Below the pieces are notes generated by a model. It was not told where the DNA came from. It made no database searches and worked only from the letters and a program-made list of their open reading frames with translations. Source: a virus (lineage: Duplodnaviria > Heunggongvirae > Uroviricota > Caudoviricetes). Taken from it: a stretch of DNA of 4,507 nt. The stretch's first letter is position 1. Each line of letters opens with the position of its first letter. Shown piece after piece: positions 1,143 through 2,526 of the stretch. Where the stretch lies: the IMG/VR virus record IMGVR_UViG_2534681831_000024, positions 1-4,507 of that record; one strand, given 5' to 3'. The position numbers and the translations under genes were made by a program.

Positions 1143-1412
1143 TTACTTCATCCCGCCAATATTTTCCCACCTCCCGTCAGCACGCAGGATTTGCAGCGGT
1201 CTTACCACACACTGTATCTGCTTTTTATCCGCATCCAGTATCACCACCTGCGTGATTACCCTGTCCTGCTCCGGGATAATGCCATTCTCATCTGACTCCA
1301 GAATGTCTGCCGGTCCCAGTCGCAGCTGTGCTGTAAGTAACTCCCCGTCTTCACGGTCATCATGCTTTCCGCAACCGCACAGACGCTGCATAATTTTTTT
1401 TAATATGTTCAT
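1143..1412 (-). CDS. Small hypothetical protein (89 aa from ATG 1412; the ORF track's 118-aa version starts at TTG 1499); alternatively the C-terminal end of the frameshifted tail fibre gene
   Basis: ATG at 1412-1410 preceded by AGGAGA with ~6-nt spacer (minus caggagaatgacATG); product MNILKKIMQRLCGCGKHDDREDGELL...ENIGGMK; stop TAA at 1143-1145. The same frame is open upstream to 1700 with no stop, so it may not be an independent gene. Confidence 0.45.
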   Translation of the reverse strand: MNILKKIMQRLCGCGKHDDREDGELLTAQLRLGPADILESDENGIIPEQDRVITQVVILDADKKQIQCVVRPLQILRADGRWENIGGMK

Positions 1413-1605
1413 GTCATTCTCCTGTTCTGCCTGTATCACTGCCCACTTCATCCAGCCCCTTAACATCCTGCCACGGCCCGTCACCAAACTGACCTGCAAA
1501 TGCTGAAAAAAACCCTGAACCCGTGTGGCATCTTTGGGGGCAAGAAAGGTCAGTCCGGTGATGAGTGCGCCATCTGTATCCGGGAACCAGCCATGGCTGT
1601 TTGTC

Positions 1606-2526
1606 TCAATAATGTTTCCCGGCCCAGACGGAACCGTATTTGTGTCTCCCCCGGGTCGCCCTTCGGCCCCTGAGGTCCGGTTGCCCCGACAGGGCCGGTG
1701 TCACCGCGCTCTCCCTTATCACCCTTCGGCCCCTGAGGACCCGCGGGCCCCTGTTCCCCTTTGGCCCGGGAGGTCCCACCACGGTGGGGATTCGGTTTAC
1801 GGCCTCTTCCGCCGCTATCCTGCTTTGTTCCGCTGACTGTGCGCTTTCTGCTGACTCCCGGGCTTTTTCTGTTGCGGTCGTTGCATCCCTGGCTGCATTA
1901 CCGGCTGCACTTTCTGCCGTCTTTCTTGACAATTCAGCTTCTGCTGCACTTTGTGATGACTCACTGGCTTTTTGAGCGGCCGCAGAAGCCGAGGACGAGG
2001 ACGCCTCCTCTGACTGCTTTGCAGCGGCTGCACTTTCTGCCGCCTGCCGGGCTGACTCCGATGCCTCCCCTGCTGAAGTGTCAGCATTTGCCGCGCTCTC
2101 TTCTGCCTGACTGGCTGATATGCCGGCATTCCTCGCTGACGTCTCCGCCTCTCCGGCATTCTTCTTCGCCTCCTCAGCGTGACGCGCCACCTCTTCCACC
2201 ATCAGTTCAAAACGGCGCAGTGCCTCCGGCCGGACGTCATCCTCCGACATGGCACCGAGAAAATCATTCAGCGTACCGGGTTGAGAATCTTCATACACGG
2301 TGATGGTCCCGGCATGTGACGGCGGGAATCCTTCCACCAACAGAATGACTCTGTACTGACCGTACTCAACGTCCATGCTGTAACGACCGGCTTCATCCGG
2401 ATTTTCAGAGGCCACCGTGTTCACCACCACCGTGCTGCTGGTCCGTCTGGCTTTCAGTTGAATGGTGCAGTTCTCTACCGGTTTTCCTGTGCCGTCTTTC
2501 AGTACACCTGAAATCTTTACTGCCAT
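1606..2526 (-). CDS. stf: Side tail fibre protein (lambda Stf-like), N-terminal domain plus Ala/Ser/Glu-rich linker; frame ends prematurely just after the start of collagen-like repeats
   Basis: ATG at 2526-2524 gives MAVKISGVLKDGTGKPVENCTIQLKARRTSSTVVVNTV..., which I recognise from memory as closely matching the N-terminus of phage lambda Stf (the track's start at 2532 is a GTG two codons upstream). Long SA/E-rich low-complexity linker as in Stf. The C-terminal tail in this frame (GNRGPRVLRGRRVIRESAV...RGRHKYGSVWAGKHY) looks like out-of-frame translation. Confidence 0.75.
   Translation of the reverse strand: MAVKISGVLKDGTGKPVENCTIQLKARRTSSTVVVNTVASENPDEAGRYSMDVEYGQYRVILLVEGFPPSHAGTITVYEDSQPGTLNDFLGAMSEDDVRPEALRRFELMVEEVARHAEEAKKNAGEAETSARNAGISASQAEESAANADTSAGEASESARQAAESAAAAKQSEEASSSSASAAAQKASESSQSAAEAELSRKTAESAAGNAARDATTATEKARESAESAQSAEQSRIAAEEAVNRIPTVVGPPGPKGNRGPRVLRGRRVIRESAVTPALSGQPDLRGRRATRGRHKYGSVWAGKHY
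1650..1765 (-). repeat. Collagen-like Gly-X-Y repeat coding segment of the tail fibre, readable only in the -1 frame relative to the stf N-terminal frame
   Basis: The stf frame gives GPP-GPK-G then loses periodicity; the adjacent frame gives [38 protein letters not shown]. One extra base in the minus-strand AAAGGGG run (plus 1756-1762) would join them into an unbroken Gly-X-Y array. Confidence 0.6.

Follow-up and report, generated by a model that had tools for sequence, protein, structure and literature searches.

Three one-base deletions in the EPclA-type side tail fibre gene of an nleL prophage contig, probably sequencing errors in a known type of gene

The locus described here raises a simple question: why does a gene that reads as one collagen-like side tail fibre change its reading frame repeatedly along its length, and do these changes belong to the organism or only to its deposited sequence? 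The window, by which we mean the whole stretch of DNA that was analysed, is 4,507 bp long and is the entire contig AIGG01000040.1 of the draft assembly GCA_000249815.2. AIGG01 may be one of a 2012 batch of 454-sequenced non-O157 STEC drafts, though this is not used as evidence in what follows. The minus strand, on which all of the genes discussed below lie, carries in order the 3' part of J, lom, a collagen-like side tail fibre gene, a separate 89-aa gene consisting only of a PfC domain, a tfa remnant and nleL. An earlier note on this DNA had proposed that a single tail fibre gene is split here by the loss of single bases from G-runs and, on alignment to intact relatives, that proposal is borne out, though the number of the losses and the position of one of them are not those first given.

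Fibres of this kind are well described. EPclA, the EHEC prophage collagen-like protein A, is a side tail fibre, of which ECs2717 and ECO26_1634 are examples (Ghosh et al. 2012, PMC3368898), and the recombinant protein has been shown biochemically to be trimeric and to be a collagen triple-helical protein (PMC3368898). Its PfN and Col domains are separated by PCoil, a region of 116 aa that is almost without Leu, Val or Ile, and defective members of the family, the EPclA* genes, are on record for the published sequences of EDL933 and Sakai (Z1382, Z3309/Z3307 and ECs2159/ECs2158; PMC3368898). Virions with a functional stf bear jointed tail fibres and adsorb faster (PMC3368898).

The fibre gene and its three frame breaks

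The interrupted gene extends over positions 1414-2526, from an ATG at 2526 to its true stop, a TGA at 1416-1414, limits that follow from aligning it with two intact genes of E. coli 95NR1, one of 440 aa and one of 371 aa. The two 95NR1 loci are at NZ_CP021339.1 1384739-1389852 and 1535360-1541552. With three missing G bases restored the gene has 371 codons, well short of the approximately 460 that had been expected of it, and the repaired translation matches the Pfam profiles PF08400, PF01391 and PF06820 over their full length. The prophage tail fibre N-terminal domain, PfN, comprises aa 1-133 (2128-2526; PF08400, E 9.4e-69, profile positions 1-133 of 134), and residues 1-93 also match the PDB chain 9e7m_Ta, 'Tail fiber protein', with an E value of 6.4e-51. 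There follows a low-complexity linker of 117 aa, PCoil (aa 134-250; 1777-2127), in which there are 38 Ala, 23 Ser and 17 Glu residues and only seven of Leu, Val and Ile taken together. The collagen-like (Gly-X-Y) domain, a short allele of some 45 aa, lies at 1646-1776 (PF01391, E 8e-09 in the repaired protein) and the PfC domain of the fibre, aa 297-360, at 1450-1639; the latter is spread over three frames by the second and third breaks and is matched in the repaired protein only (PF06820, E 3.2e-36, profile positions 1-64 of 64). Against NCBIfam, the fibre had collagen and low-complexity hits, all of them below threshold, and the 89-aa protein had no hit.

Once repaired, the fibre has a PfN-PCoil-single Col-PfC layout identical to that of EPclA, and its gene, like those of EPclA, comes after J and lom in a lambdoid prophage; in the window the gene follows the J fragments and lom, and the locus is collinear with annotated lambdoid prophages. 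Judged by this layout and position, the gene encodes an EPclA-type fibre (PfN-PCoil-Col-PfC) and belongs to an EHEC lambdoid prophage, in this case the nleL-carrying one. Its frame is broken three times as deposited, and in that form it belongs with the defective EPclA* class.

Relative to the closest complete genomes, those of the E. coli O111 strains 95NR1, 95JB1 and 8B (99.7% identity), the fibre gene carries three one-base deletions, and the deposited gene runs through frames 0, 2, 1 and 0 in turn rather than through one uninterrupted frame. At site 1 (codon 256, in the second and third Gly-X-Y triplets) the G5 of intact relatives is reduced to G4 in the window, at 1756-1759; at site 2 (codon 301, at the start of PfC) their G4 is reduced to G3, at 1623-1625; and at site 3 (codon 347, inside PfC) their GG is reduced to a single G, at 1489. 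As the net change is -3, the true C-terminus is back in the starting frame and, beyond site 3, the gene reads RFGDGPWQDVKGLDEVGSDTGRTGE up to the stop at 1416-1414. The frame breaks are not the product of chance: it is the repair of these three bases that yields the full-length Pfam matches.

Much of what had been noticed at the outset holds. The Stf-like N-terminus and the Ala/Ser/Glu-rich linker do share one frame from the ATG at 2526, and this frame reaches GPPGPKG and then degenerates; in translation, the Gly-X-Y register is indeed carried on in a second frame. The collagen domain is mostly read in another frame because of the site-1 deletion, and its 14 uninterrupted triplets are contiguous only once the site-1 base is restored. 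This first break falls at the very G-run that had been named, and the 308-aa ORF is, as was supposed, a truncated product of the fibre gene. The second break, which had been placed at the C5/G5 run at 1648-1652, has to be moved, for that run is of equal length in intact relatives and the missing base belongs to the G-run at 1623-1625. The second frame is correct through ETQIRFRL, that is, past the C5/G5 run, and a base added at 1648-1652 would turn the conserved PfC start ETQIRFRLGPG into GDTNTVPSGPG. Only two missing bases had been counted, the GG-to-G deletion at 1489 having been overlooked.

The third frame is open from approximately 1640 to 1143, as had been observed, but this is fortuitous: no stop chances to fall among 26 out-of-frame codons, which are then succeeded by the frame of the 89-aa gene. 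This gene (1143-1412, start ATG 1412), located in the third frame of the fibre, encodes a stand-alone PfC domain, a 'phage tail fiber C-terminal domain-containing protein' with a full-length match to PF06820 (E 1e-36). The suggestion that it forms part of the fibre does not survive comparison with intact homologues, which end about 77 aa past the collagen region. A fusion of the two was rejected: the intact relatives examined have the 89-aa ORF as a separate CDS directly downstream, and repair of site 3 brings the fibre to its own stop at 1416-1414. The exact sequence of the 89-aa protein is found on at least 1,000 contigs and has 32% identity to the fibre's own PfC domain; the ORF is a gene in its own right.

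The short collagen allele

The collagen region of the window is shorter, in frame, by 207 bp (69 codons) than the 114-aa region of the nleL-locus copy of 95NR1, and alignment places the junction of this difference at 1677-1687, where one copy of an 11-nt direct repeat, GGGGCAACCGG, is retained. Repeats with a 9-nt register make up the region, and collagen lengths among relatives differ by multiples of 3 nt, many of them by multiples of 9. The window conforms to the EPclA family in this respect, since its collagen length also differs from those of its relatives by a multiple of three residues, but at about 45 aa it is shorter than the 63-144 aa of the published entries (PMC3368898). An intact 371-aa allele of equal length is present in other strains; the equally short allele is found intact in WP_000268904.1 (371 aa), from a paralogous prophage of the same strains as those compared here. 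That the difference might be a frame-disrupting lesion, or a collapse, was considered and rejected, for it is in frame and the intact allele of equal length exists. The 207-bp shortening is a natural allele.

The combination of this short Col allele with an nleL-type PfC was absent from the complete genomes, IMG/VR contigs and protein records searched, and both parental copies, the one with the short Col and the one with the nleL-type PfC, are present in the three closest strains. The joining of the short Col to an nleL-type C-terminus would appear to have arisen by true recombination or by chimeric assembly of two paralogous prophage copies. Fibre alleles often recombine into mosaics, so the mosaic need not be a chimera.

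Origin of the frame breaks

We assign a probability of roughly 0.7 to the reading that the three deletions in the fibre gene are errors of sequencing or draft assembly and not mutations of the organism. The differences between the contig and its closest complete genomes include six single-base indels, every one of them a change in homopolymer length, and two isolated substitutions, of which that at 1667 is the allele of a paralogue. Three of the indels are those of the fibre and the other three lie in the 3' part of the tail-tip gene J (3257-4507), which is split into three ORFs: A5 at 4278-4282 where the reference has A6, AAA at 4060-4062 for AA, and CCCC at 4031-4034 for CCC. In mutation-accumulation studies of E. 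coli, indels account for about 10% of spontaneous point mutations and, assuming that share, the probability of at least six indels among nine events is approximately 6e-5. J also contains a CA-to-AC swap at 4054-4055, beside the A-run (reference CAAAAAA, window ACAAAAA), in which the number of A bases is unchanged and one A has moved ahead of the C. Such a swap is the pattern that a phasing error of flow-based sequencing would give; as a mutation it would call for two simultaneous substitutions. The stretch of J at 4020-4300 reaches 99% identity in no complete genome.

The distribution of the differences points in the same direction. The indels fall into two clusters, 4031-4282 and 1489-1759, each spanning about 270 bp, and there is no difference from 95NR1 in the 1,489 bases below site 3, in lom as a whole or in the part of the fibre gene that lies upstream of site 1. 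The segment is multi-copy, occurring at a median of 5-9 and at up to 14 places per genome; with some ten near-identical prophage copies in each genome, reads from paralogues would be pooled. The same region in IMG/VR often stands on short contigs of approximately 3-7 kb, and a multi-copy segment on short contigs is a setting in which consensus errors and chimeras arise. The under-counted G-runs (G5 to G4, G4 to G3 and GG to G) are most likely errors of base-calling or consensus in a contig that is short and derived from a repeat. Homopolymer-length miscalls are known in draft assemblies from flow-based or early long-read sequencing, and we infer a likeness to them from the fact that the indels of the window are all changes of run length (6 to 5, 5 to 4, 4 to 3, 2 to 1, 2 to 3 and 3 to 4), that one A of a run has shifted to the other side of the adjoining C, and that the contig is short and from a multi-copy region. 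Draft-assembly error as a cause of the frameshifts was not weighed in the earlier note; it is now the leading explanation.

Other copies of the gene bear directly on the three sites. In 5,426 complete E. coli genomes, no exact match was found to the site-2 variant among 3,165 homologous places or to the site-3 variant among 4,344; neither variant was found in IMG/VR, where run lengths were measured in loci retrieved by a flanking pattern derived from the window and where site 2 is G4 in 119 of 119 copies and site 3 is GG in 109 of 109. The truncated 306-aa product is encoded on AIGG01000040.1 only, and no such product was found in a collection of 15 billion proteins. Site 1 is more variable, with G5 in 85, G4 in four and G6 in one of 90 IMG/VR copies.

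This variability favours the alternative that survives best, namely that the deletions are real and that a cryptic nleL prophage has had its fibre gene and J inactivated by slipped-strand deletions of one base in G-runs, leaving an EPclA*-type pseudogene; we consider this unlikely, while granting it appreciable weight. A genuine frameshift at site 1 is plausible given that the G4 variant is carried by 15 of 706 complete-genome records (from O157:H7, O111, O26, O121 and O145 strains, with a 'frameshifted' annotation in the two inspected) and given the defective, frame-lost EPclA genes of EDL933 and Sakai. The breakage of J also fits a decaying prophage, and EHEC prophages are commonly defective. 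The EPclA* genes and the PGAP 'frameshifted' pseudogenes of RM9322 and PV15-279 are fibre genes divided into two ORFs by a loss of frame, and in the latter two the lesion is the same G5-to-G4 change as at site 1 of the window. Each of these two pseudogenes, however, is one base short, consistent with a single lesion, whereas the window has three lesions in the fibre, two of them unique, and three in J. Two of the fibre deletions stand in runs of only 4 and 2 bases, and none of more than 3,000 other copies has them. With intact sister copies 99.7% identical, a ratio of six homopolymer indels to two substitutions is far removed from the natural mutation spectrum, and the resemblance of the CA/AC swap to a flow-phasing error, in a 4.5-kb draft contig from a multi-copy region, likewise tells against decay. 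The 15 'complete' genomes with G4 have accession numbers in the style of 2017-2021 and may be long-read assemblies, in which residual homopolymer deletions are possible, so their G4 calls may not all be real. Were the deletions genuine, the 'defective prophage pool' of EHEC would gain one more decayed tail module, and that would be nothing new.

A mixed history is far less probable still: the G5 tract of codons 255-256, at the start of the collagen region, would be a recurrent slippage hot spot, at which G4 and G6 forms switch the fibre off in EHEC prophages of many serotypes, and the window would combine a real event at site 1 with sequencing errors elsewhere. The G4 alleles might even so yield some full-length fibre, because the deletion creates, in the zero frame CCA AAG GGG, a formal X_XXY_YYZ heptamer, A_AAG_GGG, at which a -1 slip would regenerate the exact wild-type sequence.

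That heptamer, with the variation of site 1 between G4, G5 and G6, is what speaks for functional frame changes, whether by programmed ribosomal frameshifting, by transcriptional slippage or by phase-variable G-runs that switch the fibre on and off, and to these we give almost no credence: sites 2 (CUG GGC CGG) and 3 (GUC AGU UUG) are without a slippery motif and have variants that no other copy shares, the 91 nt of RNA around and after site 1 fold no better than shuffled sequences (-39.2 kcal/mol against -37.6 +/- 3.2, z = -0.49), and nearly all homologues keep the fibre in one frame. Of the hallmarks of programmed -1 frameshifting, a heptamer at every frame change, a downstream RNA structure and a conserved split frame, none is found here. 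Phase-variable homopolymers are typically of 7 nt or more and vary frequently in length among copies, and the tracts of 4, 3 and 1 G (5, 4 and 2 in the reference) are far below known contingency tracts, with length variation in other copies at site 1 only. Programmed frameshifting and phase variation were accordingly set aside, on the absence of the variants elsewhere, the IMG/VR run lengths and the lack of excess RNA folding.

The frame breaks being most likely sequencing errors in a known type of gene, the case is an ordinary one and, whether artefact or pseudogene, there is nothing new here. Earlier work has described the family, the variation in its collagen length and its copies that have lost frame; the breaks themselves, which are probably absent from the organism, have little biological weight.

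Annotation and neighbouring genes

For annotation, the 308-aa 'stf' ORF is better described as a frameshifted or low-quality fibre gene and the J fragments as a frameshifted J, and the 89-aa ORF should stay a gene of its own, unfused to the fibre. The laboratory strain lambda PaPa offers a parallel: Hendrix and Duda reportedly described, in 1992, a frameshift that splits its stf into orf401 and orf314. There too a one-base deletion divides a side tail fibre gene into two ORFs, but that mutation was verified experimentally whereas those of the window are probably errors. The stf gene of lambda has a homologous PfN and the same position downstream of J and lom; its product is without the distal PCoil-collagen-PfC part and the gene is followed by an intact tfa, whereas the window has a tfa remnant and then a type III effector gene.

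These last features are known from the annotation of the collinear 95NR1 locus and from a gene call on the source contig. The tfa remnant lies at 1141-1049 and is followed by a 29-aa ORF at 1036-947 and by the 5' part of the effector gene nleL (1-927), which is cut by the contig end. Upstream of the fibre, lom (2591-3190), encoding an Ail/Lom outer-membrane beta-barrel, is intact and shows no differences from 95NR1 (PF06316, E 5e-120), and a terminator scan finds a terminator-like hairpin after it, at 2564-2543.

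Frame breaks in the fibre gene

Three-frame translation of the minus strand agrees with the earlier note in its description of a split tail fibre gene: one frame runs from the N-terminal domain through the Ala/Ser/Glu-rich linker to GPPGPKG, the Gly-X-Y register is carried on in a second frame and a third frame has no stop until position 1143. The interpretation of a single fibre gene, split by single-base losses from G-runs, also stands, but the number of breaks and the position of the second do not. Base-by-base alignment to the closest complete genomes reveals three one-base deletions rather than two. 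The first lies at the G-run that had been named (site 1, 1756-1759, G5 to G4); the run at 1648-1652, where the second break had been placed, is unaltered, and the missing bases are instead at 1623-1625 (site 2, G4 to G3) and 1489 (site 3, GG to G). The same alignment shows an in-frame collagen shortening of 207 bp at an 11-nt direct repeat, GGGGCAACCGG (1687-1677), and a substitution at 1667. Past site 3 the starting frame is regained and the protein ends ...RFGDGPWQDVKGLDEVGSDTGRTGE*, with its stop at 1416-1414. Restoration of the three G bases gives a protein of 371 aa and not the gene of approximately 460 codons that had been anticipated. The openness of the third frame over some 170 codons is real, yet partly accidental, as it reaches the downstream 89-aa gene (ATG 1412, same frame) by way of 26 out-of-frame, stop-less codons.

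The repaired protein begins with PF08400 (PfN; E 9.4e-69) over residues 1-133; next come a linker of 117 aa rich in Ala, Ser and Glu (PCoil), a PF01391 collagen domain (Col) with 14 Gly-X-Y triplets (E 8e-09) and a full-length PF06820 domain (PfC) at residues 297-360 (E 3.2e-36). Residues 1-93 match a chain named 'Tail fiber protein' in the solved structure 9e7m (E 6.4e-51). This PfN-PCoil-Col-PfC arrangement is exactly that of EPclA, the EHEC prophage collagen-like protein A (Ghosh et al. 2012, PMC3368898), proteins which have been characterised biochemically as trimeric, collagen-like and consistent with phage side tail fibres. EDL933 and Sakai are listed in the same report with copies that have lost the frame and are termed 'defective'. 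The fibre gene belongs to the known EPclA type of side tail fibre genes, whose frame-lost copies are already on record.

The 89-aa gene and the surrounding contig

Homologous DNA was found by megablast of the window in 4,820 of 5,426 complete E. coli genomes, with a full-length match in 693. The top matches are the O111 strains 95NR1, 95JB1 and 8B (99.6% identity over the fibre region, 99.7% over the whole window), in which an unbroken CDS of 440 aa encodes the fibre. Its stop is followed, after 1 nt, by a separate 89-aa CDS, the tfa remnant, a 29-aa ORF and nleL, and an Stx2d phage has the same layout.

The earlier note had taken the 89-aa ORF (1143-1412, minus strand) as part of the fibre. 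This ORF has a full-length PF06820 match in its own right (E 1e-36) and its exact sequence occurs as a separate protein on at least 1,000 contigs; fusion into one gene of approximately 460 codons is therefore wrong by the refuting condition that the note itself had set, the ORF being a separate CDS in the intact relatives examined. It shares 32% identity with the PfC domain of the fibre. The locus holds two PfC modules in tandem, that of the fibre (1450-1639) and this stand-alone paralogue, followed by the tfa remnant (1141-1049).

When the truncated 306-aa product was looked up by exact match, the window proved to be the full 4,507-bp contig AIGG01000040.1 of the draft assembly GCA_000249815.2, and no other contig on record encodes that product. 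On the minus strand of the window lies the terminal part of the tail module of a lambdoid prophage: J, represented by its 3' part in three ORFs (4466-4275, 4251-3979 and 4027-3257), lom (3190-2591; PF06316, E 5e-120), the 308-aa ORF with an Stf-like N-terminus (2532-1606, real start ATG 2526), the ORF downstream of it that ends at 1143, the tfa remnant, the 29-aa ORF (1036-947) and the 5' 309 codons (927-1) of nleL, which encodes a type III effector E3 ligase and is truncated where the contig ends. Positions 1-1141 are the same as in 95NR1, with zero indels. The gap that separates lom from the fibre gene holds a strong terminator-like hairpin (2543-2564, minus strand), 11 nt upstream of the region of the fibre ATG; it has 8 pairs, 7 of them G-C, with a T-run after it.

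Origin of the single-base losses

We consider it most likely, with a probability of about 70%, that the frameshifts are homopolymer and consensus errors of the draft assembly. The whole contig differs from the closest complete genome by six single-base indels, every one in homopolymer length. Three of these split J into its three ORFs (minus strand: A6 to A5 at 4278-4282, AA to AAA at 4060-4062 and CCC to CCCC at 4031-4034); the other three are the G-run deletions at sites 1-3. Over the J stretch 4031-4282, identity to every complete E. coli genome stays below 99%. Beside an A-run, an adjacent CA to AC swap (4054-4055) leaves the A count unchanged with one A shifted across the C, which fits a phasing error of flow-based sequencing and would be unlikely as a double mutation. 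The remaining differences are two isolated substitutions and the collagen shortening. If indels are taken to account for about 10% of the point mutations that arise spontaneously in E. coli, the probability of at least six indels among nine events is about 6e-5.

The site variants were sought as exact 61-mers in complete genomes and in IMG/VR. In complete genomes, those of sites 2 and 3 occur at 0 of 3,165 and 0 of 4,344 homologous positions, respectively; they are also absent from IMG/VR, where the run is intact in 119/119 and 109/109 copies. The G4 of site 1 recurs: 15 of 706 complete-genome records have it, spread over O157, O111, O26, O121 and O145 strains, and both records inspected (RM9322 and PV15-279) annotate a frameshifted pseudogene; among 90 IMG/VR copies there are four with G4 (L031, L036, L056 and L062) and one with G6 (L046). 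Such length polymorphism could reflect a real slippage hot spot or recurrent sequencing error. The segment is multi-copy, the median being 5-9 per genome, and often ends up on short contigs in assemblies. That the gene is instead a genuine pseudogene within a decaying prophage seems rather unlikely. The breaks are probably artefacts in a gene of an already known family. Programmed frameshifting fares worst: the G4 allele of site 1 forms a formal slippery heptamer, A_AAG_GGG, at which a -1 slip would restore the wild-type sequence, but the RNA downstream folds no more strongly than shuffles (z = -0.49), sites 2 and 3 have no slippery sequence and their variants are unique to the contig.

Collagen length and mosaic structure

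The short collagen allele is natural: 95NR1, 95JB1 and 8B also carry, in another prophage and adjoining nleG7, an intact 371-aa fibre gene of equal collagen length (WP_000268904.1). Further 371-aa variants were found in many strains. The window is mosaic in structure. Its short allele, with G at 1667, is typical of the nleG7-locus copy of 95NR1, and from 1643 onward (PfC and downstream) the window agrees with the nleL-locus copy of that strain, which places the crossover between 1667 and 1643. The exact combination of short allele and nleL-type sequence was absent from the complete genomes, IMG/VR contigs and protein records searched, and the mosaic may reflect genuine recombination or a chimeric assembly of two paralogous copies.

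Collagen lengths of EPclA vary in multiples of three residues (Ghosh et al. 2012, PMC3368898). Among 119 IMG/VR loci, length differences are nearly all multiples of 3 nt, many of 9, and two contigs have the same short collagen length as the window. With the distance from site 1 to site 2 as a proxy for collagen length (loci L009-L127), values lie between 67 and 337 nt, almost all of them multiples of 3 nt apart, and 328 nt is the commonest (56/90). Four of the 90 copies have out-of-frame distances (323, 326, 327 and 330), and there are therefore other frameshifted copies in the draft data.
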